From Catajapyx aquilonaris (taxonomy: Eukaryota), in assembly GCA_000934665.2 (NCBI GenBank), contig JYFJ02002424.1, positions 1 to 57,223 on the forward strand: DNA of 57,223 nt. Reading direction: 5' to 3'. Below are positions 3,504 to 57,223 of the stretch, piece by piece. The number at the start of each line of letters is the position of its first letter. Position 1 is the stretch's first letter. The translations under genes and the position numbers were made by a program. The notes below the pieces were generated by a model that searched no databases, was not told where the DNA came from, and was given only the letters and a program-made list of their open reading frames with translations.

Positions 3504-3594
3504 AATATAGGCATTTCCATGGGAATGCAAATTGATTTATTGTTATTATTGTAAGCTAATTGTTGAAGCAAGAATATGCGTGTTGTGGGAGTAA

Positions 3595-17447: not shown

Positions 17448-17549
17448 TCAGGAACCGAGGTACATACAGCTGGTGTGACCCTCCAGGTACTGTGGAGGAA
17501 TCAGGTCTTCAATGGGACGTACTGCTGCCAGTTGCCACTTGTCTCGTAT
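17448..17549 (-). CDS. DPEP1: Dipeptidase 1-like gene, terminal coding exon F (with stop)
   Basis: Strong acceptor tttttctcttatatattttttgcag|ATA in phase 0. Encodes IRDKWQLAAVRPIEDLIPPQYLEGHTSCMYLGS* (TGA at 17448-17450), resembling the DPEP C-terminal PxExxIP...SC segment with the dimer Cys. Confidence 0.9.
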   Translation of the reverse strand: MRDKWQLAAVRPIEDLIPPQYLEGHTSCMYLGS

Positions 17550-26885: not shown

Positions 26886-27033
26886 CTATGGGGCTCAAAT
26901 TCTTTTGGCCACTTTATCCTGGTCTTGTAGCAACCCTTCGCACAGGCCCCATGGTGAGGAAGTGTGTGTGTGTGTATGTGAAGGGTTGCTTCAAGACCAG
27001 GATAAAGTGGCCAAAAGAATTTGAGCCCCACAG
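26886..27033. mobile_element. Short TA-flanked MITE (hairpin)
   Basis: About 55 bp near-perfect TIRs (ggggctcaaattcttttggccactttatcctggtcttg...), TA on both sides, short (GT)n spacer. Explains the mirror-image ORFs MGLKFFWPLYPG on both strands. Confidence 0.88.
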
Positions 27034-30000
27034 TACAGCATGGCTATCTCTAGATTATGGAGTATTTTCTCCTATGAAACCATTTATAAAGATTAAATAA
27101 TGTGTAATTACTGATAAACGTTTCTGAAAAATACTAATAGGTCTATAAACAAACATTTTTATTATTCGCATTTCATATTCCATATAAAACCACTTACGGG
27201 ATATAGCTTCACTTTAAATCAATTACGCACTTAATAAGCCAATCAAATCATATGCACGCTGCATAATTGAAATGTAAACGTATTCATTGGCGCTTATGTA
27301 CTAATTGGCAATTGATCGTCACAATCCAACTGACATCATGTCTAAAAGTAGACAGGTGTTGGTGGTCGCACCTGAACTCTACCTCTTCCTCCACTAATTG
27401 GGTCTGGATTTTCATGGGCGTACTGCATTGCAGTCTGACCCCTCGCATGTCAAGATGGGATAGGGATGAGTGACACTGGTCATCGATCGCTAGATTCTCT
27501 CTCACTCTCTCCAGCGTGTAATTTTCATATTTCCTCGGCATGTTCTCCTTTTTTTGATGATTGCGCATTGTTGGGACAAGCAGACAACCGGTTTCAATCT
27601 ACGTTTCTTTTAAGAGGTGGAAGTAAGCGTTGAGTCTTGTGGTATGAAGGTTATGAAATGTTTTCTCTCCGCTCCTTGTATCTAGAATTGCCTGCGTTTT
27701 TTTCCCAAGGATAATTACCACAAACCTGAGTTTCAGGAAACTACGGGTTCTTCAAGAAGCTCCAGTGTTATGTAATTGTTGCAGGTGCAGTGGCCTCCCA
27801 AAATTACTGCGGGTTACCAGGATGTTAGGAGGTCGTAAATATAAGAGGGTTTCGTAGCGTGATTATTCGTATTCCAAACCTCCTCTCCGAATATTAGGTG
27901 AACGTATCGAATTCCGACTCTGCTTACATCTCAAGAATGATGAATGCCACCGGAAAAAAACTCTGCTGTTCGTTACAGCTATCCATCCGGAGGAAGTAGA
28001 TGTTAAATGAGAATCTACTTTTTGCTGGTTCTTTTTTTAAATCCCCCTTTGTTCTTTGGCGGCAATCATTTTTTTTGATGGTAAAGCATAGAGAAGAAAT
28101 GAAGGCGCAGGATGGTGGCAATTGCCAGCGATAATAATTCAACAGCAAGGAAAATGAATCAGGGCTCATTTTGAAGTCGCGGGGAATTTAAAACCCCGTA
28201 AAAGTCTGACAAGCGAAGAACCATTACAACTTCGGATGCTGATTCAGGCAGAAGAAAATTGCCAAACCCAGCCGAGCGACTAAACACGCTACGTCTACAT
28301 TAGCTACGTTATTGACTTAGCCAAACCAGAAATGCGATTTAGAAGCAGAATTCTCAGTTGGTGCATGGACATTTGCCGTTTGGCCCATTTCGCTATTTTT
28401 TTTATATTATTGCCTAGTGACATTCTTGGATCTTATTGCTGTTTTTCACGCAAGTTAATGAACTATGTTTCATCCAGCTAGATGGCGTGGTCATTAGTTG
28501 CTGAAGGCGGAATAGGTTGAGGCAGGCTCTGGAGTTGGTACATAGATCTGAATTGCATGGCAGCCACTGCACCTATGGAGTGGGCCGGTGATTGCTTCAT
28601 TATTTCACGGGATCGGCGGTTGTCCGCCTTTCGCTTCCTGCGATTTGTCAATCTGGCTGCAAGCAAGGACGCCAGAGCCATAATGTGAGTAGGAGGCATC
28701 AGCACGAACCAGACGTGGTTATTAGGAATGACGTCTGCTGATGGTTTCATTTGTCAAGTTCGAACGGAGGGATAAAAACTGTTATATTATTTTATTTTGC
28801 AATGGGCAATTACTGTATATCAAAAAAGCTTTAGATAACCCTCATCACTCTAGAAAGGTAAAGTTTAGTTACGTTTGAGCGGAATTCTTTGGCATAAGAT
28901 TCACTGTAGCTTTTGCAGGCCAATTTTCCTTTATTAATTTTAAATAGCTAATACATATAGTCCGTTAAGCCAAAGAACGACATGACGTCACGTTCAGCCC
29001 ACATCCACCCGGCTCTTCCCTCCAATCATGTCCCCGAATTACTCTGCAAGCATCCTACTGCGCTTGCTCATAAAACACGGTTGGTGTGACGTCAGGTCGT
29101 TCTTTGTTTTAAAGGACTGTATCATACATGCAATTGTATAACTCGTAACCAAGCGTTGGGCAATAATTTTTCTCTGTAACCGCATCTGCTCAAATCGGAT
29201 ATATTTGACGTAAGTACAGCAGCAATGAGCTTTCAAAACCAGAGTAATCAAGCAGCCTCGTAACGTCAAAACTTGCTAACCGCTTTGAAAATGAAGCGTT
29301 ACTTGTATTTGGTCCTGTAAACCGGCATGCGCGCATCAATGATTTACATGTACATGTAATCCTAGGAGCCTGGGAATGGGTGTCAACAAAAATACCGCCG
29401 CGTGCCACATTTGAGGGGGGACTGCGTTAAAAAAGTACCTCTCGCATAGGTTACATTTGCAGAGCCTAGCAGCCGCATTTCATTTGAATTATACGTTCAC
29501 CCGAATTTTGGTGGACATCTGCCTCTCCCTAAACCGACAGAGTTGTGTTGGGACTGGAAATAATTTTATGGTGACATGCAAATTCATGAAGCCATGCGAA
29601 TGAATGAAGCATTTTCCCTGGTGCTGCTGGGGGGGGTGTCCGCGGATGAAAGCCTAAAAAATTAAAAACCAACGGCGGCCTTAACTCATGAAATGACAAT
29701 GCTCCCCCCCTCAGTGGGATATTTTCGCAAGATTGACTCTAGCCATACTTCTGGCATCGAATATTCTATCCGGGGCTATTTCGCTTCAACCTCTAACCCA
29801 TTTCTCGGAGGGCACTACTTGGAAAAGCCTTCCTTTTCCCAGCTAATTGAGTGGTGCGGGTTCCACCCCCGAGGCTTGGCCTAGTCCCAAAAACCAGTGG
29901 GGGTACTATAGGATGCTAGGATGGATGGTCTATTACGATAGGGACCACGATGGTCCTACCTCCAGCTAAGGTTTTAACCCTAACTTGCAGGGGGTTTATT

Positions 30001-35086: not shown

Positions 35087-35225
35087 CTCTTCAACTTTCC
35101 TGAAGACCCGTAGGAAATTATGGCCAGCCAACTTCTTTAGGTCGTCCACTTCCCAGTTACTGTCTTCCATGAGTTTGGCGAAGAGGTAGGGATACTTGGA
35201 TACGTCTTCCAGTCCACGAGGTACA
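35087..35225 (-). CDS. DPEP1: Dipeptidase 1-like gene, coding exon E
   Basis: tttacag|T GTA...GAG|gtaagt; 139 nt, phase 2 to 0. Encodes (Y)VPRGLEDVSKYPYLFAKLMEDSNWEVDDLKKLAGHNFLRVFRKVEE (PxGLEDVSKYP and NxLRVF motifs). Confidence 0.96.
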
Positions 35226-37342: not shown

Positions 37343-40321
37343 ACGAATTTGGAACACCATTTTGTTGAATCCATGCAATATTAGCAAAGGACTAATCTTC
37401 CGAATAGTCTTAATTACAAGAAATGTTACAAAGTCATATTTTCAATCATATTAACTACATAGAGTATAGCGCGTGTAACTTTTTTAAACTTCAAACAAGG
37501 TACAGGTACCGTATATTAAAATTTATTTGAAATATTTGTGTATCAATGAGACAAATCCTTCCACCTTGAAGTGACCATTTGACACAAGCTGTAGGAAAAG
37601 AGAGAAGAAACTCCCCAAAAATCTGCGGAAATAAGCCGGAAAGACTGTTGCAGCCATAAAACTTTACATGGCTCTCCTGAAAAGTTGGGCCGAGTTGGGA
37701 CACGCCCTTCTTGCCCCAACCCACTCAATTTAAAGCTTACTAGCCCTTGCCCCAAAATATGACAAATTTCAACAAATATTCACAAGCACCCTCATGCAGG
37801 CCACAAACATTCCACTAATACCCCCCATACAATAATTATGTCCCCATTTTTTTCCCCCAGCCCAACTCTAAGAAAAGGACAACTCCTCGCTCCAGTTAGG
37901 CTGCACACTGCTCTGCAATGCGCATATAAGTATAAGTAATGTTATGAACGCTTGGTACAGCATACGGCAATTACCCCGAAACGGAGCTAAAAGGAGAGTA
38001 ATACGCCCTGGGAAGAGACTGCAGCGCGCCCTACTGTAGACTATGAATCTCAGCCCCCTCCTTCCCCCCCCCCCTCCCCCGCCCTCTCACAAAAGCAGCG
38101 GAGGGAGGGATATATCCTCTGAAAATAATTATCAATGACTGCATAGAAATGCGCGCATAAGAATGCTCGCTACTGCTAATCACCCAGACTGTCCCGGATT
38201 AGCTTTTCCACGTCTCCCTTCTATATTACCCGTTGATTACCGTCGAGGATTTAGGCGCCCATGTTCCTGTTCTAAATCCGGCTGATACTATAGCACCGTG
38301 CAGGTCATAAAAAAGTCTACCCACAACCTCCGCCTCTCCCCACAGTAACTCGGTTTATAACCAGCCACCAGAGAGCTTCTCAGAATCAGATGTTGGATCT
38401 TTCTAGCATGTTCAAAATAAAGACGGCTTCATTTCAATCAAGAGGGTGTGAGTGTGGTACTGGTGAAGTCACTTGTGGGTAACATTTCGCATCGCAGGTA
38501 TACAGTAATAGATTTAGAGCCAGGGTCGTTCTGCACAAATGCCTGCACATAAATTGTGTAATAAATGCGACTTCCTCTAGCTTCGGGGACATCTGATATA
38601 TTGTGGACACAATGCTCACTAAACCGTGTCATTGCAGATAATACGACAGGGTGGAATAGGTACCTAATTTTGTATCTGAGAGTTTTATTACCGGTAATAT
38701 TTTCAAGATCACAGTTTTGTGGGCAGTTACGGGGCAGAAGATTCCATTGCTCCGTTTTATAGAAAACTGACGAAGCTAAAACGAGGCAGTTACATTCTCT
38801 GGTGCGTGCTCGGCAGGTAGAAAAGGGTTCTACTTTCTAGCACAGCTTTATGTCACCTGAAGCGAGAAGTTACCAACTTGCTGCGCAGTATATCTGCGGT
38901 AACTACATAGGCGCATCTAAAATCCTAAATTCATCAGTATTGGTATATACAGTATATGATTGATGGATGACTAATGTTTTTTTGATGTAGAGACGATAAC
39001 ACAATATATAGGAGTGACTTTATGCATCTTCGACGTCAGCATATCCATGCCTACGTAATGTATTTTACGTGCTAATTCACAGAGATGGTTCTTATAGGCC
39101 TACGAAGCTTTCAAAACAGGTGCTATACAAATATACCTGCTGATTGGGTCTCGACCTCCTGAAGGTGAAATTGAATTAGGCCTGATTTAACTTAGTCTTG
39201 AGAGGCCTTTCAGGCAAGTTTCTCAGTGTCGTCGTTGTTAGAAACAAAATTTACATTCATCTATACTCTAGAGATTGATTATGTGTAAATCTACTTATTA
39301 AAATCTAAAAATTAATAGGTTGTTCTAGGACGGAGCGCTTCTATATGGTGCTAAAGAACGCGTCACATTTTCTTGATTATGAAACAATGGAATGGAGAGC
39401 TCGGATAATTTTTATTCAGGATCAAAATTTATGGGATTCGATTAATTCGCACAAAAAATACGAAACAATGCGGGATTTTCAGATTTGTTTGGAGCCAAAG
39501 GGTGCCTATTTATATGAGAGTACCTACAGTTAGATCTCACATTTCAAAACTTCAGTTGTAGCTAGTTGGAGGACTGCATTCATATCTTAGAATAATACGA
39601 ATAACTTGAGACAAAAAATTCCGAGACTTCCAGAAAGTTTCATAAAGAGTTCTTTTTTCAAAAGCAGATTTTTTTTTAAATGAAGGGCTTTTAATACTGC
39701 AGCATGTACTAGCTTCAGGGTGGTAGATTTTCACCACTTCTATGTTACCTTCTGATTTGTATCAAAAGAAAGCAAAAGTTCCGGCAAGACCCAGAAAAAA
39801 ACCATAAAAGGAATATTCTACAAAAAAATGAATCTCCACCATCCTTTACAGTTGTAAAATCGTCGTTGGCATTACAATATTATGTTCCAAATGCCTTCAT
39901 CATATTTATTTAACGATGCAACTTGAGACATCACAGAAACGTCTGTCCCGAAAAGAATGCCTTTGACTTAACATGGAGGAATGCTTTTGAACAGCAAGTG
40001 CACCGGCAATTTACTCTTGATAGCCGAATGGAGAAGTGTCCCCAGCAACTAACATTGTCTCCAGTGTCATTAAGGTCAGCTCGGGGCGGAACGTAAAAAT
40101 GCCAGCGAATGCCTTTTTGTTGCCGCTAGTCTGGAGTGATTTTCAGACCAGATTCGCCTGCCAGGTGGGTTCCACATAAAACCTTTACGGGCAGAACCAA
40201 GCTCCGGACTCAAGTTCTCAATACCCATATGATATTAATGATAGTCGTATGTGTACATGCAATATCAGAGCAGATCATCCTTGAGATCATCCTTCCAACA
40301 GTCTAACACTGGTTGTATGTA

Positions 40322-40538
40322 GGCTACGCTTTCGTATCGAGAGACCCCACACTTTTACATATTCTCCTAGGTGTGTATCCGCTGAATGATAGGCGTGTAT
40401 CCGCTGAATGATATGCGTGTATCTGCTGAAGGATAGGAATGTATCCGCCGGGAAGGAAGATTTGGTCATGGGGTACGTTGGTGAGCGTGCCTCTACCCCT
40501 GCCACATTCGGTCCCCCATTAATATGAAAGCCCTTCCT
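40322..40538 (-). mobile_element. Dispersed repeat with internal 22-bp minisatellite (copy 2, inverted)
   Basis: Reverse complement of 25592-25828 (ggctacgctttcgtatcg.gagacccc.cacttttac...taggcgtgtatccgctgaa...cccctgccacatt), with one repeat unit fewer. Confidence 0.82.
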
Positions 40539-42854
40539 TAATGTAAGAGTTTGAAATCGTAAGGCCACAGGTGAACGAAACAAAACCCTCTCAGTACCTA
40601 CGTAGGTACATTTCGACTCACTTCAGCTCCACGTACCCTTTTAGTTTGCTACACCCTGTGCGAGACCAGCGCACAAGGGAGGTCAGGAATTGCTACAAGG
40701 TGGCCTCCTGAGAGCCCCGGAATTAATATGCAGGCTCTTATTGCGTTAGCCTAGGATGTGTGGAAGTCTGAGGGAAATGAGAATGGATGGCTGGTTGTGC
40801 GGAGCAGAAGGCGGGCGATAAATCCGGCTGGGCGCAAGGACGAGGAGTCCGGGATAATTGGGGGGAGGACGGGGGAGGACGAGGGTATGGCAATCTGGAC
40901 TGCCAACAGAGAAGAAGGCCTAGTTTGTGTTTCCAGTTATTGCATGCACACCCCTGTCAAGGCATTAGCATCATACTGCCATTTCCACACAAATGGCACT
41001 TTTCCACGCCGCTCGGGAGAAACGTGTCGCTAGGAAAAGGCAACCCGGAGCCTTTTCCTTGCCCACCTTGGCTGCCAACAGGAAGGTACATTTTGCAACT
41101 TGGTGCACTTGGCACTAATTAGGCCATTCAGGGGAGCGAAGGTTCCCCGTGGTCTTATATTCAAATGTCACCACCATGTGACAATCGACTTAATCGCACT
41201 GGCTCATGAAGTGGCCCGGACCTAGGGCTTGCTCACTAACGCGTGACGTAGAACAAGGTGGGTCGGTTGGAACAAGATATGACGCTGCAAATGGTGACAT
41301 CGTCAAATTGAATAACTATCACATCACATAATGGAGTCAGAGTTTTTTTTAAACACTGTAAAGTGATTGATACTACTACATATAGCCAGTACACCCTGAT
41401 TTCCATCCACCTTTTGAGAATCAACTAAGCGTAGTTCACTAAGCCAATAGAGAGACCCAATAATACCCTAAGTGGTCGCTCAAATTACATCCATCGGTGA
41501 ATCTCTGTTGATGTTGGCATTTCTGTGCGTCTCTTGCTACATGGCAGGCTCAACCCATTGCTATCTCATTTGCACACTTCTGCTGAGGTAGGCTTTATAC
41601 TACATTTCCGTGGACCTTGCTAACTACTAAGAGTTAGCTGTTACTAGTTACTCCTAAAAATGTACCGGTACTTGACACAAATGTGAAGACCGCATTCCCT
41701 GCATTTTAAGGCAGACAATGATTCCCTTACTGTACAGTACTATGCAGTTACGTGAAAATTTGACCACGAGTCAGATAAAAAATAATGCTGCACTACAGTG
41801 CTTCACTGTGTAGAAGAAAATACGGTATTATACTTCCACTACATAAATAGGACATGTGCTCTGCACTGAACAGTTAGAGTGAAAGGCATGCACAGGTACT
41901 TTCTTTATGATTACAGCATGTTATTCTTAAATGGCCTGCGGTGGCATCAGAGCACCAGTGTATATCAAAAGTTCATGTGGGGAAAGTTCTCGAATTGCGC
42001 AATAGCCTCACAAAACCTAGCAAAATATACAAATGTTGAGCACTAGCATATCATGGCCTCGAAATTATTACTATTATTATGTTCCCTTGAAACAAGTGTG
42101 CTCTATTCCACGAATAAAAATATTTCACGTTCATGTACAAAAAATTTATCATGCAAAATTCATTGAGCTCTGCCGGTTGCCATCATATTTTTTCATAAAC
42201 AAGCAGCGTAATCGGAGTAGCTACACATTTTGCCCACCGACCATATCTGTAGTAAGAGCAATTGGCCGGTTGGGAAAATTCGTAAATGGCGTGGGATTAA
42301 TTAATATCCATCATGCAAGTTGCGAAATCGCCTGCTGTACAACACTAGGTTAATATTTGTCTTTCTGAAAACTATTCACACACGCAGCGAAACATCCCAA
42401 ATTCCAGCCCCTTTTTTGTTTGCCTAGCATGACATTGGGTAAAATATAATGACCAACACTTGGAAGTCTATACCGTAAATGATCAGTGTGGCATAAATCC
42501 CAAAGAATGCGGCTTGCATGTAGATACAGCAACAAAAGAGTTTGCACAATCAAAAGTGTGAGTTATATGGCAAATCGATGTCAGACCCCCCTCCCCCCTT
42601 CCACCCCCTACCCTTATCACTAAAAATCAATGCCGTGAGAGGGGAGGGAGACCTTTCTCTGCATTTGATTTTCATTGCTAATGGCTCCGATATGAGCCCT
42701 TGTCATTCTTCACTAAGACTCGTTGGCGGACCAATTACAAGCTAATCAAATTATTGGAATCTGCCATAAACTAGATGCTTGATTTTTGTTTAAAAAAAGT
42801 TTAAAGAGGTTAAAAAACGCATGCTCTAGAGAGATACCATAATTTTTTACTCAC

Positions 42855-42930
42855 TAATTAATTCCGTCGTATCCAGCCCCGATTCCAACGTGCTCCACTC
42901 CTGCAACATCTCGGATGTGGTTGATGTGGT
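42855..42930 (-). CDS. DPEP1: Dipeptidase 1-like gene, coding exon D
   Basis: ttttttccag|AC CAC...AAT TA|gtgagt; 76 nt, phase 1 to 2. Encodes (D)HINHIRDVAGVEHVGIGAGYDGIN; phases match both neighbouring exons. Confidence 0.95.
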
Positions 42931-44976
42931 CTGGAAAAAAATACAAGAGAAAAAATTTACATAAGCACTATAATTATCGACTTGTTTGGATGCATTAACA
43001 CCACATTTTCCTCAGACTCTACCATCCCCTCAATATCAACACTGTAATCATGCTGGAACGTGAAATAGTGTAACATTCAGGTGGGGAGAGGAGTAGGAGG
43101 GGATAGGATGTGTCACTGGGGAAGCCCTCATTTATGAATGAGGGTCGAAATCCCACGGAGAATAGTCCTTTCCTAACCAACGTGGCATTCCGCTCGGCAT
43201 TCTGCTCATCAACAAGCGTGCTGTTTTATGCCCCCGGATGTACAGGGGGGTGAAGGGGGTGTGAGAGGGGGTGTCCATGCCGCCTTTCCCTCGGGTGTCA
43301 TCCTACTAACTGTCACACTCGGATGCTTATATTGTGGTCTGTGCCTCGCAATTCCGGTAACGCCCTGCACTCATGTATAAGCATTTTTGGGGTGGTTGGG
43401 AGGGGTGGGTGCTGCATAGGTGCGATATCAATTGGCGGAAACTGCAGGTATAAAACTTTATGCGGTGTCGTTAACGCTCGATAATTGCGTGCATTTGCGT
43501 CGTATCTGCGTTTGGGTGAACGTCGCTATGAAGAGTTTGTAGACTGGATGTAGCCCGTTGTAACGTGGCCGTCAAAGTAATGCGTGCCTAAGGTCAGAAA
43601 AAACAAAGGTTGTGGTGTAAAAATCCTAGCTTTCATAGTTTCCTCTGTGAGGCTAACGGCTACTTAAACTGCATGTGAATCTCGGTGGGACAGGCGCAGG
43701 ACTATCCAATCAAATAGCCGCGTGGCATTGTTGCTGTTCGGGGTGCAACACTTAAATTTATAGTACACCACGCTGGTTCATCCAGTGTAGTGTTATGGCA
43801 TGGCGCTGAGTGTCCCATGCTCAGAAATGGGAACCAAAATTGGGCTCAGACTATTATCTTCAGAAGGGATGTAGCGTTTACGTTATTTATAGTGTTTCAG
43901 CTCCTCTCACACCGGTATATGCCAAAATAGAAAATGATATGACACATTGACTCCCTTTCTGGGGCCTTGGTGTGTATTCTAGTCCAGGTTTGGCGTTCGG
44001 TAAAGAACTATGCGATAATGTTCCTCGAACCGTCGAGTCTTTGAGCTGACAACCATACTATCAGACGTTGCATTGTTTCACAGCAATGGAACATGGATGA
44101 TATTAAATGCAAAGAACCTTGGGCAAAAAAAGAGACCTGAAGTGCGGATCACATCAAAGGATTCACATTTTGGTCGAATTTTGTGTCTTTCACTTTCTGA
44201 AGGCCAAGTCTGTTTTATGATAGATCCATTACAGTTCTCTAGAAGAGTGTCTGAAAAAAGGGATCCCATAAGGGGGAGACAATGCAATCTTCAAACCCTT
44301 TTATCTCGAAATCTTTCCAATGTGACTCGGATCATTCTGCATTTCAGGTCTTCAAATGCATTTTGATGGCGAATCAAACTCTATTGTTCAGATTCTCTTT
44401 ATCTATTTGTGGGCCTTGTTTATGGGCAAACCCTACTGAATGATTTCCATTCATTACTGCTTTAAACATTTAATCACGGATTTAAGGAAACGGTTTCGAA
44501 CTCTTTTATATCGTCTCCACGTCAGTGGCAGTTGCTCTGAAAATATTTTTAAAATGCTTTTATCATGAATGTTTTGAGTTTAAACTAACTTTTACTAGAG
44601 GGAGACTACTAGGAAAACTTGATTAATAGGCTCTAATGCTATTGTTTTGGTCGGCAGTTGGGGCAAGCCTGATTTTCCGAGGAAAAGCCAGCCCAACGTC
44701 CAGCATGACAAATGCCTCACAAGTCTTCACTCTGCCATAGCCTCTCCCCATTTCATTTGTAACTCCGTGCAACCACAGCGAGAGAGTTCGGGCCGAAAGA
44801 TGGGGTACTTCCTCTTATGGTATGCGCAGCAGAAGCCAGATCTAAGTCGCCTAATTTAGTCATTTTGTGTAGCACAAATGGTTTGGATTACGATCATATT
44901 GGTTCTATCATTTTGTTTTCCTTGCTTTCCAACCGCATTTGTCAGACCAATCTAAAGTTCTGCAACTGTGATGGAA

Positions 44977-45136
44977 CAGTATTGGTCATATATCGAGGCA
45001 ACCGCCAGCGACATTTTCCGAAGCGGCAGAAGAAGGAGTCTTGCTCGCCAGGCTTGTAGCATGCTTATCTTCGATTCCTTCTTCTGCCGCTTCGGAAAAT
45101 GTCGCCGGCAGTTGCCTCAATATATGACCAATACTG
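44977..45136. mobile_element. Short MITE-like hairpin
   Basis: About 62 bp near-perfect TIRs cagtattggtcatatat.gaggcaac.gcc.gcgacattttccgaagcggcagaagaagga; TSD not resolved. Confidence 0.8.
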
Positions 45137-48100
45137 AACATAAAATCGCTCAGACATGATAAAGCCTATTCCAAGATTGAACTTGGGTTTCAAGCGCAAC
45201 ACCTGCAACTATTGAACTCGGAGCTCCTGTGAATGGCCGGTAATTTGGCAAGGTTGGAATGGGAGATATAGCTATGTGAAATAGGAAGTGCAGCCCTAGA
45301 CAGTACACGTTCATGCCTGTTTTTGTTAAGACACATACTGCACATTCCATTGACCTGAAGGTTTCTGAAACGCCAGGGACAACTGAGAAAAAATGACTTC
45401 TGTTTACACCCCTGGATTGCCGAACTGCTTTCAACTATTGACTCTTCTCTTACGATTTTCTCTAGGAGTACACTACCTGTATATTCGCGGGCACTGTGTA
45501 CACTACTAACTTGTTGTCTTGATGATCGCCAAGAATATTGTCTGAGCTTCTCGTATAGTCCAGACAGAGTGCTAAACTTAGGACAGGGTGCAAAAGAAGT
45601 AAAGCCGACTGTGAATTATGGCAATGCTGGACCAATTGGCCCTTTACAGGCCCTTTTCATCAATTCTGGAATCCAGATCGCTCAAGGCGGGAAACCGGTC
45701 GTGTCTTATCATCAATCGAGATCCAAATCCATCACGAAATGTAAAAGAAATCACTTCAAATGGTGGGTGCTATTTGATAATATTTGGGGTCCTCTTGTCA
45801 CTCTCAGCGAGGCAAGCTTTTTCCCACCTATGCTATGGCACGATTTTTGAGTAGTGTACGATATAAATTATAATAACTTATGTATGGTGAATAAAGTTAT
45901 TTTTTTAAGAAATATGTTTCATGTATGGAACATAATTCGCACTATACACGTAAATCGAGACAGATTTCAAGGGGGAAAAAACCAGGCGTATCTAAATATC
46001 CGATGTAGTCCCTGTACATCCTAGTTTTTAAAAGTATCATAAACCCGGAGGTTAGCTGCATTGATATCTGCCCAATGGCCATAAACCATACTTGCAACAA
46101 ATGGATTTATCGAGTTATAGGATGCAACGCCTCATTGAGAGCCTGCAGTTTTTTCTCTGCCGTCAAAAGCAATTTTATGGATCCCTTTTTACAACCTAGT
46201 GTATAACCCGGTCAAAACACTGGAGTTCTGTAGGCTATACAAGAGATCCAACCTGAAACAGAGTGTACCACACCTTGATAGACTAACACTTAGGCTGGTT
46301 GCATTGCTTGCGGTACCGTACATCAAAAATGGTGCGTTTATGCTCACAATTCATTGTTAGCAACAATAAAACAATAGCAAATAACATGAAGAAACACGCC
46401 GTTTTTGATTACCGCCAGCTGTGCAACTCGACCATAGGGAGCAGTTTATTTCATTTTAGGTTAGTGCTAATATTCAGCCAAAAAGGGAAGATAGTGGATA
46501 AAGTTGTTTGTCGTTGAGATCAGTGTACCCAACATGCATCCATATACGAAGTCAAGATCGGTAGTCATAGAGACATGAAAGTTTGTTTTCTCAAACAATA
46601 GGAAATCTAACCTAATCTAATGCTAATCTAAAATCATGGATTTCACGTTCTTATTCTTTTTCCCGGTAGTGTTAGGCCTTGACTGCCTGTATTGCAAGGT
46701 TATGATGCTGGAGGAGCGGTTGTCGATGTTGGGAAACAATAAAGCAGCTGAGGAAGAACCGACAGGTTCCAACGAAGACGACGACGCCGACATAGAAGAA
46801 ACGTGGTTTTTTTAAGCATCAAATGTTGGAAGGTACAGTAACTACTAGCCAAATAGTGTTCAGCAAATTAACATTTATAGCTGATTTTCCTGCACTGAGA
46901 GTTTCAAAAGTTTCAAATGAAGTCATCGTTGTTGTAAGTACTAAGCAAGTCGTACTAACAATGGCAGGGATAAGGTGACAGTCATTTTTAGAACTTATAT
47001 CTAAAAATCGCATTGTATTCTACTTTCCGATTTTTTTCTTCAAGTAAGTTCAAGTATTCAGTGTAAAACTACCGTGAATGTCTGGCAGTGAGCAAAATAG
47101 ATTCAGCAATTGGCTTTTCCGCATTCCGACTACGTTTTAAAGTCATATTATCATTCATGAAATGTATTGGGATATGGATAGGAGGATTTAGTGGTTCTAA
47201 TATGCAAATTAGAACACTGTAACATCGCGCAATTGAGTCAATAATATTTATAAAACCATCATTTTAACGGCACTTTGTTCTCTTACAGGCTACCAAACTC
47301 CATGCAAACAAAATTATAAGTATAAATTTGGATCAAATGTGTAGTAGGCTACAGAAGAAACCGGGAAGTATCTGCCAAGGTAGGTTTACTTCATATCAGC
47401 ACTTACTGTACGTAATTATGCGAATTTATAATTTCCCTCAGACTGGCAGGAGTGTCATACTTATGCATAATGTAACTTCTCTAAAAACTTTAAAAAAAAA
47501 TTGGTCACATGATTAGCTCGAGTGATTAATATCACCTATTCACGATTTAAATTCCAAATTTAAGAACGAGTAACCTAAATAATATTATACCGTAATTAAA
47601 TAGGTTGCGATAATGTAGCGGTTTCTCTCATTGGGTTGGACAAAAGATTTTTTCCACGTGAAATTTAATTCCCGCATGGATTCTTTACGTGCTTTGCATC
47701 CTGAATTTCTCCCTGAGGGGGGGGGGGGGGTTCTCCTCTTTCCACCCACTCTCAAAAAGGGATGAATAATCAAGTAATAAAATAATGTAACTGGTTCCCC
47801 TAACAGGTCCAATGTTATTACTTTTGTTTTACTTTTTTGTTTACTTGCAGAGTGTGGAATAATATGAAACTTGCTGTCCCAAGGCAAGACTGGAGGTGTG
47901 TGGAAAAGTGTGCAAAAGTAGATGTATTCGAGAAATGATGAACTACTCTTTGCAAAAATGAAGATATTTACCTCCTCCTCCTTCTGCAAAAATGAAGCCT
48001 ACAAAGCATGAACATTGCTAAATCAATAGTCGAATTATAGTAAAGAACAGGAATGTACGTAATAAAAATTTATATATGTGAGAGAAAATCTGAGATGCTA

Positions 48101-51100
48101 TTTTGTTTGGTTTATTTGCGTTTACGACCACAGTTTTTTTTAATGTATTACGTCTAATACATCTAAACCTATTCCTACGGTGGCCATCTGCTACGGTATA
48201 CATCTTCCTGTGAATAAACAAAAAATCCAACATCTATTCTTCCGTATGTATTTCACTACAAAATTAATGTAGTCTCTCAGCCTGCAGACACAAACTTAGA
48301 GGTGAGTCATTGTGTGAGTTACACCATTGCCTTTGTTCGATTTTCACAATGTCGGGGAGCCTTTCCTACAACCACCCACTGCCGTTGCCCATGACAACAA
48401 AACCACAGAGTGTAACCAGCCGAGGACCTGACTCCTGCTTATAACTGCACAGCAGGTAGCTCCGACTCGCTTGAGAGATCATGCAAAATGTGATGCATAT
48501 GATCTAATGCATGACAATCCTGGACACTCCAGGAAAAATACTCTCACGTAGGCCTACTTTGTTGTTGACAACAAGCATTGGTCACATATAATTTGCGATC
48601 CAAGCCAGTTATGGCCAATATTCGACTACGTGTATAGCGGCATAGTGTGAGCAGAATGCCAGATGAAGACGGTCTTGACTTGGCAACCACCGTTTCCCCC
48701 ACCCTCTCTCTCCCTTCTCCTCTATCCCATTTCCCAATTCATGGAGGTGGACTTGGCGCCATTGCGGCACCCGCGCCCAGTAAATAATGGAAGCCCCCAA
48801 TGCTCAAAATTTAATGAAAATAAGATTGCCACGGCGGCCAGCTCGGGAGTGAATCTCTAATTGAATGTGGCAGCACTGTCTGAGTGCGGCTTACTACCTC
48901 CTAAATCCTAAACTTTCGGGGAGAGATGCACTGCAACTATGCGTCCCATGACTGAATAGAGAGCTACGTGGCCTGATTCAGAAGAGACATTTTGTTCCAG
49001 GGGTGGGGAGGGGGGAAGAAAGGGATGGTTGCTGCGCCCTCCATGCGATGTTTTATGTACTCTTCAATTGTCACCAATTAGTCTGGGCTTTGATAGTGGG
49101 CTAACCTTTTGTTGTCGGCGGACCAGTCGACCATGTATTCTCCTGCTAATTGGATTGCACATTTCTTACGCATTTTGTTCACTAAACGTCGGTCCATCAG
49201 GATGGCAGTTAACGATTCACACTCTTTGAACCGGTTGATGTACTGTGGTAATGACTGTCTATATACACGTGGTAATGGATTTGTTTTCTTGTGGATCTTG
49301 CAACGTGGTCATTTTTTTTTAGATAATAATGTGAGTCCATATCAATATAGCTTCCTTCAAAATGCCTGAAATGAATGATGCTCATGGGACATTCCGCCTG
49401 ACGGGCTGGCATTTCAGTAGATGGCCAATGTTACTTTGCCTGATGGAATTACGGGTTCAAACAAATACAAATCACACAGTGCGACAGACTTTCAAAAAAA
49501 ATGGCGCTTTGGTCCAACAGTATATATATAAATGGTGTTGTAAATAATGAGCAGCAACTAGGCTCAAATAATGGTGGCAAAAAATACTCGACATATCCAA
49601 TGGCGGAAATAATTTATTGTCGCTACAAAACCGTAAATAATAGACCTGATTAAATAGTGGGAACCGTAAAGTTACTACACACTGGAGGAGGCACCACGTG
49701 GTAACCCGGAAGCGTTTACGAAAATACTGCATCTCCAGAATGTCATTAGATGCGTGTAGGAACTTTACGACTTCCACATAAAGCGCCTAAACCAGGTTGC
49801 AAATGTGGAGTAAAACAGGGACTGACGCTGGCAATCCATTGTCGTGTGCCAAGTTGGACCCACGGAAGCGGCAATACAGAACATAGCGGATGGAGTTGCC
49901 GCAGAAAAATCATACAGTAAAAATTATGGCATATTCTGCTTAAGAGCCAGTCACTAATGCGAATTAACTACAAAGTGATGCGATGGTTATTTTGCCATAA
50001 CGTGAAATGGGCTTGCTTTTTCTGATATACTTCTCTGTATAATTTTGAACAACTATTTACATATACCAAGGCCCGCAACATCAATACAACATCCAACAAA
50101 ATACAAGTTTCCTTCGTCTAAAAAGTTCTTCAGTTACAGTCTCACTGAATAGGAAAATGGCGCACGTCTTTTATGCATCGGTCGGATCCCGCCCAGAGAA
50201 AGTGTTTCATATATATTTTCTTCCATATTGAAACACTTAGGGGCAAGTCTCGAAATTCTCTTTTCCTGGCTGAAAATCAACATCTGTACTGTTTGCGAAA
50301 GGGTAGACGAACCCTCTCCCTTAATCTCTCCGGCATAGAACTCGAGGCAGCGGAATATCTCAGACGAGAGTCAAATGGGCTCCTTGGCTTTGCGATAAGT
50401 ACCCTTAATCACGCTTCCGATCAATATTTGGCGATAATATTATAGGCCAAAAACTCTCAAGGAAAAGGAAAAGGAGAAGCCGCGGCAAAAGATTCTAGAA
50501 GGGGACGAAAAGGGAAGGTCGGTTGGAGTTGCAATTTCGCTGGGATTTAGTCTCTCCTTTTCTGCTGGAAATTGTCAGCCAAGGTGCCGATGTCACATGG
50601 CACAATAAAGTTCACCAGCACACCCTTAGGACTCGTGCTAATGCATATTAATAACGTGAACTCAAAATAACCGAAAGGAAGGGAGGGAACGAGAGCTGCC
50701 TTTTTTTGTGTGTGTGCTACTGGATGTAATATGAAATCGAAATAAGACCTGGGATCGTGCTAGAAAATGGTTGAAAAAAAAGACCGCTAGTCTTCCTGCA
50801 GGCTGGAGCGGAATTGCTAAAACTTGAGCTTTAAATCGCTTTTGTACTGTATGGTGTTTTTTTTATTACATTCACTTGTGCTAGTTTTATGAAATTATTG
50901 GTCGCTTCAGAAAAATGTTTAATGGTAATGTTGCAATGACAGTAGAAAAAATGTAGTAAAAAAGTGAAACTGAAGAGGTAGATGACAAAAAAAACTCAAA
51001 ATCGATTGTAAGGTTTTTTCAGTCTCCTGAGAAAAGGAAATGAGCTTGATCGATTGATGTCATAGGATCTCTCCTAAAAAAAAAATTCTACCCTCGTTTG

Positions 51101-54100
51101 AATTCACTGCGAAGCACAGGATTTCCTATACTGTATGCACCAGTATCATCCTGCACGTGCAAGCAGATATTGTTTACTGTAATCCCAAACCGAGTTTAAA
51201 ATTCACAGGAACCTATACACTATAAAAGACTCATCACGTCTGAAAATATGCGTGATTGTATGCGTGTGAGAAACTTGAACACTTTCACTATTATCGTCAC
51301 GAGCACTCTGTTTATGCATGTCACAATATACCCACAAATCCCAGGGTTGTCGTGACGTCGTAAATACCGGACGCATTCCCAAGAGATGCTCAGTTCTGAA
51401 ATTACAAGAGCTTTTGCTTAGGAAAGTGCGAGAGACTTTATGAGGTTGCTTATGACTGTTTTAGATTTCATTACCATCATGAGTGGAGGTAGGGGTCGGA
51501 CAAGGTTCTGGTAGAGGCAGAAATGGAAGAGGGGGGGGGGGGGGNAAGTGAGCTGCGTAAACACTCCATTAGGGTTCTTCATGGAAATGCTGGGTGGAGG
51601 GAGGGGGTTTTGAGGGAAATTGTGTTTCGAGGGGGTAGGGAGGAGCGGGGTCATTCGGTTTAATGGTGCGCCCCGGCTTTAATATATGCAAACCGTAAGC
51701 AAATGGACTACGGATTTGAGGCGTGTTATTATTTTGCGGGAGAGGAAGTGGCTGGGATGAGAAATACAGGGGATGCGGACAAGATGGGGAAGGAAGCTTT
51801 CTTTTTACATCTCAGGGATTATTGCGTTCGACTAAGTGAAGAGACATCGGAAAACGGGGAGGATGGAAGGGACAAAAACAACCCTCGACAAGTTTCTTTC
51901 AGAGTGAAGGACTCCTGTGGATGGGTTGCCTTTGTCAGGGTCTGTATGTCGTTTGATGTGATCAATGAATGGCGGTGGTGCTCAGGCCTTTCAACATGAC
52001 GGCAAGTGGTGCCGGAAGATCGCGCCCTGCACGACTGGCGGAATGGGCTAAAGCTGGGTGCACAATGTCCAATCCGAATGGTAATCTAGGTCGGGGTCCA
52101 TGTGAGGCTGGCTCACCGGTCTAACTAGGTCAGCCACCTTGGTCTGGTCCTACGGCGCCTACGAATGCACCTTGTTATCATCAAATCTGTAAATTGAGGT
52201 TTCGTTTGTTTTCTTAATGGTAATGATCAAAATGGCGGTGGCTGCTTATGTCTGATAAATAATTAGAGTATAATTACGTAGAGTATAATGTAAGTAGATA
52301 TTTTCCCGTACGTGCTTTGAGTCGAACTGTCATTTGTGCTACGGTATCAGTTAAAATTCCGGACGATATCGTCCGTGACATACATCATTTTGGATCGTAA
52401 CTGTAACGCAATAGGCCCTACGTGTCTGGAAAGCTCATGTATGACTGGAATGATGTCACAAAGGAGAGAAATGAATTTAATGAAATTGGCAATTGGCAAA
52501 GTACTCTATGATACTGCCTGCTAGCGAGGTCCAAAATGGCATATATTTATGAAAGTGGTTGGCCCGCTTCTTTGATCAATCACCCTTACTGATATGTAGG
52601 ACCAAAACGAGGGACACGGAGGTAGTTTTGGCTTGACATTTTTTGATTGGTAGAGGCCAAATCGTTAAGTACTGTTACATTAAGAGGAGCCCGATGTAAA
52701 ATGAAAAAAAATGGTCCCAATCCACTTAGCAAATTCAAAAGGGTACAATACACCTTTCGACCCCAGATATGAAGCAGGCACTTGAATTGGGACTCCCAAA
52801 TTTTCATGAGCTGGTAGGCTTCTCTATATACACTTGGGTCACATCAGACGGATGTCTCCGATACGGTCAATATTGCATCTTCTTCCCTAATAAATATTGT
52901 TGCTAGAGTAAAATAAGTAGGCCACCTAACATTGCATTGGGTCAAAGCGACCAGGTTTACACGCTCAAAATCGGTGGCAGAGAATGCCTTTATGACCAAG
53001 GCAGCACCTTGGGCACGACATTGAATATTCATCCCATGATTTATGTGAGCTCGGTACTTACGTGAGACAACAAACCTTACTTAAACTCATCTCTTTAGAA
53101 ACTTTTTGGCCGGACGTGTAATATCAGTTTGGAAAATGACCTGTTATTTCCGAACAATTTGGTCCTCGCCTACCTTCCTCTGACCTGCAAGCGGAATTTT
53201 CTTGGATATCTTCAGTCACGCCATCCTGTCAGTACATTTCCCAAAGTATAGGAGTTGCCTGTCAGAGCCCCCTAGCCCCTGGGAACTTAATCTGGACATG
53301 CAAGCTGTTCATTAAAACGAACGAGACAGGAAATGCGAGAGCATGGAATAAGTGCCAGCAAACGTGTTACTTGATGTCGGATCCTCATTATGTCAAAGTA
53401 TTGGTCAGAGAGACAATGTCAGATTGCAAGGCACAATGGATTACAAGGTTGATGTCTTACAGCGTGTCAGGATGCAGAGCGTGCAAAGACCACGTGAGAT
53501 TATATGGTACGACATCCGTTTCAGTTTTTGGGAAAAAATTATTTCTAGTCAGGTATATCGCAGGACCTGCACAATATATTGCTGATAAGGCAAACTGACC
53601 CTCACCTAATGAAGACGTGATGCATAGCATGCAATCATTCCAGACATTATAAAAAATGATATACGTCCATTTTCATAACGATCTCACTAATAATGGTCAT
53701 GACAAAAGTTGCTTAGAATCCTGTTCGTTAGTTTAGTTCTTCGCAATCGACAGTGGGCCTGCAGGAATTTCAAACAAAAATTGCACTCCATGCATTGTGT
53801 TCATGTCCTGATAACACTGCGGCACACTTTTCTGCGTGAAATAATAACCCTCTGCAAGCGTAACCTTTCGCAAAAAAAAGTCCCAATACCTAACGATAAG
53901 CCGCTTGCAGCTCCAAGAGATGCGAACGCTAATGGAGGCGAAGAGAAGCGAGTACAACCTAGGGATTTGTGGATGGGTTTGGAAAAAAAAATTATTTTGA
54001 AAAAAACTGGAGGAAGAGGGTGGACTGCGAGTGAATAATATTCATGGCATGAGGCTGAAGGGGGTTGGGGGAAACAATAGCACCCCCTCCCTACAACCAC

Positions 54101-55411
54101 ACCCACCCAATTGGCTGTGGCCTGCGGGGGTGAAGGGGGGAGGGGGCAAGGGCATTGGGTCGGATTGAAAACGGGCGCGACAAACTCATTTGGGGAGCCG
54201 GCGATCGTGGATGCATTGTGCTCGGCTTGTACGACAACCTTGTCCGACACGAGAAGTGCATTTGGCAGTCTCAAATTACTGGCCCTCCACCCCCCTCCCT
54301 CCCCCAACAAACCTAGCCAGCCGGCCTCCTCCGGACAATGAATTTACATCCAGGGTGTACACAGCACAAATGGCTAGTCTCCGCCTGGAATGATAACGTC
54401 GTTGGAAGTTTCGTCCTGAGAAAGTACGTTTCAGCCCGGAGCCTACTCCTTGCGTAACAGCCAACGGGTCTATACTTGTCGGTCGCCATTTTTAAGCCCT
54501 ACCAGGCCTACCTGGACTGCTTTCTGTGTACTGAAAGGAGCAGGATTTTGTTTCTGTGAGAATTGTTTGCGTTGTTAGACTCTTTTTCCTATACGGTTCT
54601 TTTTTGTAAAAACCTTTCAGCTTTGTAAGAAGTACCGGAATCTTTTTGATGGATCAGTGAGTTCAGGAGGATCCGACATCATTAGGCACAACTTCTGAAA
54701 TTTCCTCTTTGTGCCTGAGCAAGTCGCGCAGATATGTTTAGAGAGCTTGTTCTTTTCAGTTCAAGACAACCTTAAAAAAAAACCTCTTACAGTATGCATA
54801 CACGCCATAAAACCACCTGTAAGTGGCATTATCATCTTAGAGCCACGGGCAGAAAGACAAAAATGAGCAAGCATATTCTCCATCAGGTCACACATGATGC
54901 ATGATATGGGCCAAGTTGATTCATATTAGGAACTCCCTTCAGCAGGGCAAACAAAGCTTACGCTTTTACACAGCATATAAAATTAAGCGTAGCCGTGTTG
55001 ACCGTTTTTAGTGTTGGCTAATATTTGCCTTTTTCTTCGTTCCTATAAAGAGAACATGCACTCTGTTGGCCTACTTTGGGTCAGTACGAGCCCAGTTAAT
55101 GGATAGTCCAGCAGGGTAGGTGCTCATCTTTGGCTGGCTGAAGAGCAAAATGGATGGATGGATAGGTGGATGGATGTATGGGCGAATGTGTGTGAGTGTG
55201 TGTGTGTGGCAGGGATGAGGCAGCAAAATCTAATGCACCAGCTTGACAGATTCTGAACAAGCACGCAATTTTTTAATCTCCATTATGTTCCTGCGAGTGG
55301 GCTTTTCACGGCATCAGCTTTGTTGCACTCTACCGCTAGAGAGAGTATAAAGGATTTTTTTGACTAGATTTTTTTTGTGTCTACAGAGGTATTTGGAAAA
55401 TTAGGACTTAC

Positions 55412-55496
55412 CTATTACGTCCGTAATTGTTGCGGATTCATTGCAGGTGATAAAGTAGTTGTAAAAGCTGACCATCACAAGGCCCCCGTTTAAGGT
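55412..55496 (-). CDS. DPEP1: Dipeptidase 1-like gene, coding exon C
   Basis: tttcag|ACC...ATA G|gtaagt; 85 nt, phase 0 to 1. Encodes TLNGGLVMVSFYNYFITCNESATITDVI (GGLVMVxFY motif, conserved Cys). Not in the ORF track; found by reading the sequence. Confidence 0.95.
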
Positions 55497-56268
55497 CTGA
55501 AATGAGCCAAAAAGTGGTGCTATGAGTGCACTCAGAGTAATGTGGGGATGAAACCAAATAGCATTACAATCATATAACTGAAATGCAACATTAAAAAGAA
55601 TTCACTTATTTCTTAACAGAGCAATCAATTTTTGTATACACATATTTCTGACCAAATCTGATCCTTAAGAAGTACTATTTGTGGATTATTTTATGCAGTT
55701 ATTTAAATATAACTATGTTTGCAAATAAAGATTTCAGTTACAAATATAAGGTTTCATCATCTTTTTGTCAATAGCAACAGATCCAGCGAGACACACCCTG
55801 CAATATAGAGTTCACGCAGGCTGAACAGAAGTCGGATAATGTGGCGAAAAAAGAAAACCGAAGAGCCTTGTGGGGCTTGGAGGAGTATCAGGGTTGGAGG
55901 AACGAGAAAAATGAAGTGGTGGTCGGGGACAAATGGGGTGTGACAGGATGTAGGAGGGCGGGAGGTGGAGCAGTGTTATGGCCGAATTAGGCCTTATCCA
56001 GGTCCAAGCCATAGTTGACCAACTTCCACAGGACCACACTGAAGGGGGGAAAAAACTGCAGACTGGCACCGATGGGATTTCCAACTACTGACAATCTGTT
56101 GCGAAAGAATTTGAGCTACAGTTGGGCTTACTTACGTTTCGGACACAGTAAGTAAGCGTTAATGCAACGTCGTAATTTACGGCACGGAAAAAAACGTGAC
56201 GTTTTTCCTTCAGTGTGAACCTCCGGAGTCAAATTGTATTGTCATGCAAACAATATTAAAATACTCAC

Positions 56269-56445
56269 CACTTGTCTGAGGATGTCGTCGGGGACATTGC
56301 GTGAGGAATTGCACAGTGCGAAGGCCGATGAATGCGAAAATATGACTGGTGCTTTGGAAGCAGCTAGGGCGTCACGGATTGTCTGCACTGACGCATGCGA
56401 CAGGTCCACCAGCATACCCAGCCTATTCAGCTCTTTTATCACCAT
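56269..56445 (-). CDS. DPEP1: Dipeptidase 1-like gene, coding exon B
   Basis: tttcag|ATG...GTG|gtgagt; 177 nt, phase 0 to 0. Encodes [59 protein letters not shown], with the M19 motifs ELNRLG, DLSH (Zn His), IFSHS (Zn His) and RNVPD (substrate Arg). Confidence 0.97.
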
Positions 56446-57047
56446 CTGAAAAGATCGTGCAATTTGGTTTTTAGTTTCTATATGGATGTGTCACGCAACG
56501 TCTCACACCTTCAAAGGTGGCAACAGAGAACAATCAGAATTCCCGTGATTTTTTTTGCATCATTCGGGATTCATTTTGCAACAGTAGATTTCATCAGAAT
56601 TTTGCTACCAGTGGTAGTAGTAACCATAAAAAATTGTAGCACTTATTCTGTTGCACCCAGCTTACTGCACGTGTTATACGGCGTCCGGGCAACACTGTGT
56701 CCTGTCCGGGAAATTTACAGCGCAGCTTTCCGCCTCGCTGAATAATGTAACTCCCAACAAGTTGATTTACATTGGCAAATGTAATCCAATTTGTCTTTTC
56801 TCCCTCTCCCGCCACACGTGAAAATGATGTAGGACTATGTTACTTGTGTTGAAAACAACTGCGGTTAGTTGGTGCAATCGTCATAAACAAGCTCGTAATC
56901 CCGACGGGAAATTGTTTTCAACACGGCAACGCATCTTCCGCACAAAAATAATTGTCGACTATGAATCCCTAGCCTTGTCGATGGATAGTGCAGCTGTCGA
57001 ACTCTATAGGAAAATTGAGTGACTAAATAGTAAAATGGGGAACTTAC

Positions 57048-57117
57048 TTTTCCGAAGGATGTGAGCCCGTTGTGCTCAGGCAGCTGTCCCGGACTATCTG
57101 CTGACGAGCAGTCTGCC
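57048..57117 (-). CDS. DPEP1: Dipeptidase 1-like (M19) gene, coding exon A (first in window; gene continues beyond right edge)
   Basis: Minus strand ttggcag|G GCA GAC...GGA AAA|gtaagt; 70 nt, phase 2 to 0. Encodes (W)ADCSSADSPGQLPEHNGLTSFGK, matching the M19 segment WAD...GL(S/T)xFG. The symbol indicates family, not proven orthology. Confidence 0.93.
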
Positions 57118-57223
57118 CTGCCAAATAAGGCACAAACTAAATATACATACACTTGTTTTCAATGGTTTGCACTAATACTATATTAATACGCACACATACT
57201 TTGCACAGACGTGAGCAAAAGAC

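Follow-up and report, generated by a model that had tools for sequence, protein, structure and literature searches.

In enzymes of the M19 family and the wider amidohydrolase superfamily, an aspartate at the end of β-strand 8 accepts a proton from the bridging hydroxide and hands a proton to the leaving amine. This strand-8 Asp is said to be the general base/acid of M19 and amidohydrolase enzymes. One M19 protein, DPEP3, reportedly lacks dipeptidase activity. A review passage refers to a general-base Asp matching the strand-8 residue, for D-aminoacylase only. Other papers describe three relatives. DPEP1 is attached to the membrane by a GPI anchor (PMC11730190), and Drosophila CG6154 is treated as the fly DPEP1 ortholog, with conserved zinc ligands (PMC6372189). 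PvdM of Pseudomonas is a non-hydrolytic M19 homolog that binds peptide and is anchored in the membrane by an uncleaved N-terminal signal (PMC9305348). The protein examined here has Gly in place of the strand-8 Asp. In the open-access literature searched, we found neither a description of an Asp-to-Gly subfamily nor an assay of dipeptide hydrolysis for any Gly-type member. Databases name these proteins "dipeptidase 1-like," a label that hides the absence of the residue thought to drive catalysis.

The window is the whole stretch of DNA that was analyzed, 57,223 nucleotides of Catajapyx aquilonaris contig JYFJ02002424.1. Searches by tblastn with six insect homologs identified six collinear exons on the minus strand, whose borders were refined afterwards. 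The features are as follows.

57048..57117, minus strand: first exon within the window, 70 nt, phase-2 start, ADCSSADSPGQLPEHNGLTSFGK; tblastn with orthologs, AG acceptor and GT donor
56269..56445, minus strand: exon of 177 nt with DLSH (His198 equivalent), IFSHS (His219), SRNVPDD (Arg230) and the first disulfide Cys; phmmer, Pfam, AG/GT borders
55412..55496, minus strand: exon TLNGGLVMVSFYNYFITCNESATITDVI, 85 nt, with the second Cys of the pair; tblastn, both borders seen in a contig from run X5
42855..42930, minus strand: exon (D)HINHIRDVAGVEHVGIGAGYDGIN(Y), 76 nt, β-strand 8 region; AG/GT borders, X5 contig with 0 other letters
42872-42874, minus strand: Gly codon GGA (reverse complement of tcc), in the column of DPEP1 D288, Sco3058 D320 and GliJ D304
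35087..35225, minus strand: exon (Y)VPRGLEDVSKYPYLFAKLMEDSNWEVDDLKKLAGHNFLRVFRKVEE, 139 nt; tblastn E about 1e-15, Pfam PF01244 E 4.6e-08, AG/GT borders
17448..17549, minus strand: last coding exon IRDKWQLAAVRPIEDLIPPQYLEGHTSCMYLGS plus stop, 102 nt; tblastn, AG acceptor, in-frame TGA

Each of the six exons has an AG acceptor, and GT is found at all five internal donors; splicing by coordinates gives an open, 215-residue C-terminal half of the protein, 71-75% identical to its orthologs. The window holds the 3' half of the gene, and the exons for the HxD motif, Glu125, His152 and the N-terminal anchor lie beyond base 57223. Introns are very long (12.5, 7.6 and 17.5 kb). The segment encoded by 57048..57117, ADCSSADSPGQLPEHNGLTSFGK, corresponds to the variable loop that follows the His152 strand. 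Exon 56269..56445 matched human DPEP1 (1itq) at E 8.9e-21 by phmmer and Pfam PF01244 at E 5e-24. Its DLSH and IFSHS align with DLAH and IFSHS of 1itq, which places the zinc ligands His198 and His219, and SRNVPDD aligns with RRNVPDD, which places the substrate-carboxylate Arg230. One Cys of the disulfide pair lies in ALCNSS and the other in ITCNES. The last exon supplies a Cys aligned with the DPEP1 dimer Cys and carries no hydrophobic GPI-signal tail; the protein ends ...GHTSCMYLGS, and orthologs end in the same way (...CMYLGS) at the same stop position. Window exons scored 85.5 and 33 bits against a PF01244 cut-off of 26, and the full-length termite ortholog P0020 scored 387.9 bits, which identifies the gene as a member of the M19 family. 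An earlier note, made from the letters of the window, had described everything other than the strand-8 residue as intact (DLSH, IFSHS, the RNV Arg, the Cys pair, the dimer Cys, the frame and the splice sites), and this holds for the C-terminal half. Fifteen long ORFs elsewhere in the window gave no Pfam matches at E up to 0.01.

The exon at 42855-42930 enters in phase 1 and leaves in phase 2; its acceptor AG follows a T-rich tract, and its donor reads GTGAGT. It encodes VGIGAGYDG on the minus strand, with GIGAGYDG at 42863-42886; DHINHIRDVAGVEHVGIGAGYDGIN is the end of the minus-strand stop-to-stop reading 42854-42967. In phmmer searches of PDB chains, the exon peptide aligned without gaps to residues 267-292 of human DPEP1 (1itq, VGFGGDFDG), with Gly opposite D288. 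Equally gap-free alignments placed the Gly opposite the corresponding Asp of pig DPEP1 (9h0b), D320 of Sco3058 (3id7, GIGGDYDG) and the Asn of DPEP3 (6vgo, GIGGNYDG). The preceding Ala faces DPEP1 G287, and the Tyr-Asp-Gly that follows faces F289-D290-G291. P0020 aligned in the same register, with its Gly opposite the Ala of 5lx1, a chain titled "GliJ mutant D304A"; others had thus picked this very residue for mutation. The Asp that an active M19 dipeptidase of the EC 3.4.13.19 type requires at the end of β-strand 8 is absent, with Gly in its place. The earlier note had put Gly at the catalytic-Asp column (DPEP1 D288) and had counted GGA as two changes from GAY; the alignments and codon 42872-42874 agree on both points. 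It had also raised the possibility that the downstream Asp of YDG occupies the catalytic position. The gap-free alignment does not favor this, and because Asp-type proteins (GGDFDG) conserve that Asp equally, it is not a shifted copy of the catalytic residue.

Four DNA runs of a single sample contain the stretch and may be its source. The exon structure and the Gly codon were compared with a fifth run, X5, which comes from another study. This run contained 7% of the sampled words, about the expectation for the exon alone. A 549-nt X5 contig, aligned to 42600-57223, covers 42855-42930, 55412-55496 and 56269-56409 with 0 other letters, joining the 3' border of exon 56269..56445 to the next exon. 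It skips 12,481 bases (42930>55412) and then 772 bases (55496>56269); both gaps are bounded by CT..AC, read as GT..AG on the minus strand, and joints of this kind are absent from the DNA run. The first 247 nt of the contig lie below 42855 and by length alone fit exon 35087-35225 plus the last exon. Coverage stops at 56409, so that exon 57048..57117 and the junction 57048/56445 fall outside it. No run listed as containing the stretch is recorded as RNA, and X5 is taken to derive from RNA solely on the grounds that two introns are skipped at GT..AG in its contig. The contig is a spliced form of the transcript and confirms GGA independently; the window gene is real, spliced and expressed. Since an independent run from a different study carries the exon with 0 differences in a spliced contig, a base error is excluded, which answers the earlier concern that reads might show GAY at this codon.

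The long introns and flanking sequence also hold repeats. At 44977-45136 (wider 44552-45527), in the 12.5-kb intron, there is a hairpin-like inverted repeat with 64-nt arms that are 94% complementary and 32 nt apart. There, contig depth in the DNA run sums to about 13,000-14,500, vs about 29 elsewhere, pointing to a very high-copy MITE-like element, and X5 contigs also hold copies. Six more inverted-repeat pairs (22515-23352, 19140-19571, 2384-2786, 3592-3747, 26882-27037 and 4316-5487) have 60-129-nt arms, 88-98% complementary with 34-1022 nt between them, and are either intronic or downstream of the gene. They resemble MITE-type insertions, and the long ORFs tested near them had no Pfam match. 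Segments of about 130 nt at 25645-25830 and 40320-40483 are 87% complementary, oppositely oriented and 14.5 kb apart, and probably represent two copies of the same dispersed repeat. At 51542-51545, the sequence of DNA run X1 departs from that of the window by two bases and a 6-base insertion (ATTTTC) beside the lone N at 51545; a patched assembly gap seems likelier here than a biological difference.

Homologs were examined for the state of the strand-8 column. Among the best 120 homologs of the DLSH exon, the strand-8 motif was found 95 times, as AG[YF]D in 36/95 and GDFD in 38/95. VGIGAGYDG itself occurs in stick insect, termites, cockroach, locusts, katydid and beetles, and the springtail Folsomia has VGIGAGFDG. 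When 266 proteins were aligned to one HMM, the D288 column was D in 158, G in 62, N in 6 and another residue in 6 (232 domains). In an enlarged set of 451 proteins on one HMM, AG[YF]DG/G accounted for 221 and D for 189 of 425 domains, in a sample biased towards G by the inclusion of two further searches with G-type queries. Hexapod carriers of Gly, by name, include Collembola, Ephemeroptera, Orthoptera, Phasmatodea, Blattodea, Hemiptera, Hymenoptera, Coleoptera, Neuroptera, Lepidoptera, Siphonaptera and Diptera, among them Drosophila melanogaster; crustacean carriers are Daphnia galeata and the barnacle Amphibalanus. Every malacostracan domain seen with this column reads AD[FY]D (Scylla, Eriocheir, Panulirus, Penaeus, Procambarus, Hyalella, Oratosquilla, Chionoecetes and krill). 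Ala at the preceding column is common to all Gly-state proteins and the malacostracan Asp-type proteins. The Gly-state proteins comprise three hexapod paralog groups (G1, G2 and G3) together with the Daphnia and barnacle proteins. As far as sequence comparison can tell, the Asp-to-Gly change marks an old, well-conserved M19 subfamily. The suggestion that the motif characterizes a subfamily and is not a private mutation was sound, with the proviso of the G-biased sample; its attribution to insects was right in that insects carry the motif and too narrow in that Collembola, Daphnia and a barnacle carry it as well.

Relationships were examined with a tree of 65 proteins hand-picked from 372, built after removal of three trait columns (IQ-TREE, LG+G4, 1000 ultrafast bootstraps, SH-aLRT). 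This tree contains a pancrustacean clade (support 100/99), G1 (18 rows, 95/84), G2 from Polyneoptera and Hymenoptera (100/100), G1 + G2 (93/96), G3 from mayfly, locust, planthopper and others (100/98), and a canonical hexapod Asp clade (99/95). The window protein groups with Folsomia inside G1 (97/83); it belongs to G1 by its AG[YF]DG motif and by this placement in the absence of the trait columns. A second, quick tree of 58 rows hand-picked from 451, adding Daphnia, barnacle and ten malacostracan rows, recovered the same groups and the same placement. Within G1, the order of mayfly, Hemiptera, Polyneoptera, Hymenoptera, Neuroptera + Coleoptera, Lepidoptera, flea and Diptera is that of hexapod phylogeny; G1 is therefore read as a single, vertically inherited ortholog group.

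Patristic distances were compared between G1 and the canonical Asp paralog for pairs of taxa, with these results.

Schistocerca - Bacillus: G1 0.48, canonical 0.52
Schistocerca - Bombus: G1 0.70, canonical 0.72
Bacillus - Bombus: G1 0.62, canonical 0.62
termite - Bacillus: G1 0.26, canonical 0.32
Collembola - Schistocerca: G1 0.86, canonical 1.06
Collembola - Bombus: G1 0.92, canonical 1.03

Judged by these values, purifying selection on G1 appears as strong as on the canonical Asp enzyme. The protein had been called "selected" from a single sequence, and a G1 tree that mirrors hexapod phylogeny, with distances that equal or undercut those of the canonical paralog, agrees with that description.

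The fate of the rest of the active site was followed at seven other sites (H20, D22, E125, H152, H198, H219 and R230) in the 157 domains that are complete there and at the D288 column. All seven were intact in 101/103 Asp-state, 15/44 Gly-state and 2/10 other-state domains; Fisher's p is 2e-17, counted per sequence, and sequences are not phylogenetically independent. The exceptions in the Asp lineage are two H152W sequences. Gly-state proteins were assigned to G1, G2 or G3 by their best BLAST hit to labeled references. Among 124 G1 domains, 51 were fully intact (HDEHHHR), all of them non-dipteran by name and together amounting to 51/51 complete non-dipteran G1 domains. A further 40, from Drosophila and its relatives, read HNEHHHR (D22N); D22N also occurs in Musca and other flies. 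On top of this, calyptrate flies carry H198Y and tephritids E125K, and H198Q is seen in syrphids and R230G in sandflies. G2 shows R230S in aculeates and scattered other changes, and G3 has H152S in 11/11 domains. These several separate further losses in Gly lineages argue that hydrolysis is no longer maintained by selection. The earlier characterization of the protein as "catalytically impaired or re-specialised" gains indirect support, because Gly lineages repeatedly lose other catalytic residues and Asp lineages almost never do. Columns were also scanned for residues at least 85% conserved in Gly-state and rare in Asp-state proteins. As regards a compensating residue or a remodeled pocket, the scan returned, beyond the Gly column, only V145A and an R-to-D change at P0020 position 372, and it found no new conserved acidic residue near the site in Gly-state proteins. 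The R-to-D column, which faces a gap in 1itq, is not taken for a substitute base.

Membrane topology was surveyed in 139 single-domain Gly-state proteins starting with Met, taking as hydrophobic any 19-mer with a Kyte-Doolittle mean of 1.8 or more; the measure is crude, and the Asp-state comparison set holds many partial models. Such a 19-mer precedes H20 in 134/139 proteins, usually by about 50 residues, and in 130 of them its start is >25 residues from the Met (median start, residue 182). A hydrophobic C-terminal tail occurs in 0/139, with a median of 5 residues after the dimer Cys, and the window protein likewise has a short C-terminus there, as in G1 (...GHTSCMYLGS-stop). This architecture fits a type II signal-anchor with a cytoplasmic tail. 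PF01244 is the sole Pfam domain of the 964-residue D. melanogaster protein (P0287). Brachyceran G1 orthologs (e.g., P0287, 964 aa; Haematobia P0134, 1306 aa) are extended at the N-terminus by about 400-900 residues ahead of the transmembrane segment, and shorter isoforms exist too. Elsewhere in the family, tandem triple-M19-domain proteins were seen in Anopheles epiroticus (P0269, 1194 aa) and the ostracod Darwinula (P0001, 1468 aa). The first domain of the mosquito protein has degenerated heavily (HRKSYNL.. SGFE), and its other two are canonical; in the ostracod protein, all three domains have Asn for the second Asp of the DFDG motif.

An AF2 model of P0020, built from a 50-row alignment, reached a mean pLDDT of 92 and a pTM of 0.89, and its strand 340-342 ends just before the Gly. 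VIA-align matched the model to M19 structures as follows.

9h0b (pig DPEP1): Z 59.7, rmsd 1.4 Å, 364 residues
1itq (human DPEP1): Z 59.2, rmsd 1.4 Å, 364 residues
Sco3058 entries: Z about 56, rmsd 1.5-1.6 Å, 352-354 residues
GliJ entries: Z about 55, rmsd 1.3-1.5 Å, 346-352 residues
6vgo (DPEP3): Z 54.6, rmsd 1.7 Å, 348 residues
3b40 (PvdM): Z 44.9, rmsd 2.3 Å, 333 residues

The predicted structure of the termite ortholog is a TIM-barrel amidohydrolase fold superposable on DPEP1. The superposition on human DPEP1 that the earlier note had proposed was thus carried out with this full-length ortholog.

Two alternatives concern the Gly state itself. One holds that the gene is a pseudogene, or that the Gly stems from faulty assembly or sequencing or is private to this individual. 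Nothing was found in its favor; only half of the gene lies in the window, and its introns are very long. Set against it are the open frame across six exons with canonical borders, the spliced contig with 0 differences from another study's run, the identical VGIGAGYDG in termites, stick insect, locusts and beetles, and the 71-75% identity of the window protein to its orthologs. Within the window this explanation is already refuted, and we regard it as extremely improbable. The other is that Gly arose several times independently, by convergence, in which case the Gly proteins would not form one subfamily. The free trees require at least three state changes, the pancrustacean backbone is poorly settled, and G3, Daphnia and the barnacles do not join G1 + G2. 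However, holding all 31 Gly rows of the 65-protein tree together costs 13.2 lnL (p-AU 0.196) and is not rejected, Gly monophyly in the second tree (29/58 rows) costs 0.04 lnL (p-AU 0.507), and Ala stands before Gly in every Gly-state protein, as it also does before the Asp of malacostracan proteins. Repeated origins therefore seem to us rather unlikely. The sequence data are compatible with a single ancient change from Asp to Gly and duplications after it, but do not prove it.

As to function, we consider it probable, with appreciable room for doubt, that these are membrane-anchored M19 ectodomains that retain zinc and ligand binding and have lost canonical hydrolysis, or nearly so. By hydropathy, full-length G1 orthologs are type II membrane proteins, with a variable cytoplasmic N-terminal tail, one transmembrane helix and an extracellular or luminal M19 TIM-barrel domain; the helix lies about 50 residues before the HxD motif. 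In these orthologs, the domain keeps the ligands of the binuclear zinc site and the substrate-binding His and Arg, along with the Cys of the disulfide and that of the dimer, and the β-strand-8 Asp is a fixed Gly. Such a pseudo-dipeptidase could bind metal and a dipeptide-like ligand and act as a binding, receptor or scaffold protein. For the Gly-type protein, loss of activity and retention of zinc and ligand binding are what we infer from the sequences. Two observations run counter to this reading: HDEHHHR is strict in the 51/51 complete non-dipteran G1 domains, as expected of an active metalloenzyme, and a single other column separates Gly- from Asp-state proteins at 85% or more, with no sign of a remodeled pocket. 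The protein might instead still be a working metallohydrolase, in which Gly opens the floor of the pocket and another proton shuttle serves a substrate other than classical dipeptides. Retention of the other catalytic and zinc-binding residues in those 51/51 domains, across the whole hexapod tree, a rate of change equal to that of the canonical enzyme and an unchanged predicted fold are all in its favor. However, zinc-ligand and substrate residues have been lost in Gly genes that are themselves conserved (D22N, H198Y and E125K in flies, R230S in G2, H152S in G3), and repeated site losses in genes that stay conserved are hard to square with catalysis as the selected function; nor is there a new conserved acidic residue near the site in Gly-state proteins. 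We hold continued hydrolysis to be possible but doubtful, and we are equally hesitant about the candidates for its shuttle, namely a substrate carboxylate or amine, His152 or water.

The pseudo-dipeptidase reading can be extended, tentatively, to an ancient pancrustacean family of type II proteins with long variable tails that retain the zinc site and whose intact pocket senses, and does not cut, a small peptide, leaving 3/4 of the hexapod M19 groups non-catalytic. It is no less speculative that the sensed ligand is, e.g., Cys-Gly or another glutathione- or cysteinyl-derived peptide. As a lead only, the fly member may be the uncharacterized, brain-expressed behavior/stress GWAS gene CG44837. 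Its human ortholog is given as DPEP3 in the GWAS table of one paper (PMC11021027). A preprint describes CG44837 as a predicted gene that lacks experimental functional annotation and is expressed in adult brain, and whose RNAi raised male mating success (bioRxiv 10.1101/2024.03.01.582979). If the Gly-type proteins are inactive, 3/4 of the hexapod M19 paralog groups would not perform the glutathione/leukotriene-type dipeptide cleavage inferred from mammals, and pathway reconstructions that count M19 genes would be wrong. The family would also offer a natural experiment in pseudoenzyme evolution, in which one catalytic residue was lost early, the pocket was kept across the hexapod tree, and the metal site then decayed stepwise in some lineages only (flies, aculeate wasps and bees, and G3).

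Among known proteins, the closest structural match is DPEP1 (1itq, 9h0b; MEROPS M19). P0020 belongs to the same Pfam family, has about 49-50% identity and is predicted to share its fold, and the orthologs have the same zinc ligands, His152, Arg230, disulfide Cys and dimer Cys. They differ from DPEP1 in the replacement of Asp288 by Gly and of Gly287 by Ala; where DPEP1 has a C-terminal GPI signal, they have a signal-anchor at the N-terminus and a tail of 5 residues beyond the dimer Cys. The canonical hexapod M19 paralog (GGDFDG; Drosophila CG6154) is carried by the same species and falls in the same pancrustacean clade (100/99); unlike the Gly-type proteins, it keeps Asp288, with all other sites kept in 101/103 Asp-state domains. 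The analogy to DPEP3 drawn in the earlier note stands in one respect, since DPEP3 (6vgo) also has a residue other than Asp at the D288 column (Asn) in an otherwise conserved M19 fold. It fails in others: His152, His198 and Arg230 are gone from DPEP3 as well (replaced by Phe, Tyr and Leu, respectively), and DPEP3 lies in the vertebrate clade, with a separate origin, whereas the window protein is pancrustacean, has Gly at the column and keeps His198 and Arg230. GliJ D304A (5lx1) is a laboratory change of the same Asp to a small residue in an M19 enzyme, in that case an engineered fungal one. PvdM (3b40), a bacterial protein about 22% identical, is a precedent for an M19 fold that serves without hydrolysis and matches the model at the Z of 44.9 given above; PvdM has lost four of its five zinc ligands, whereas G1 keeps all five and loses the Asp only.
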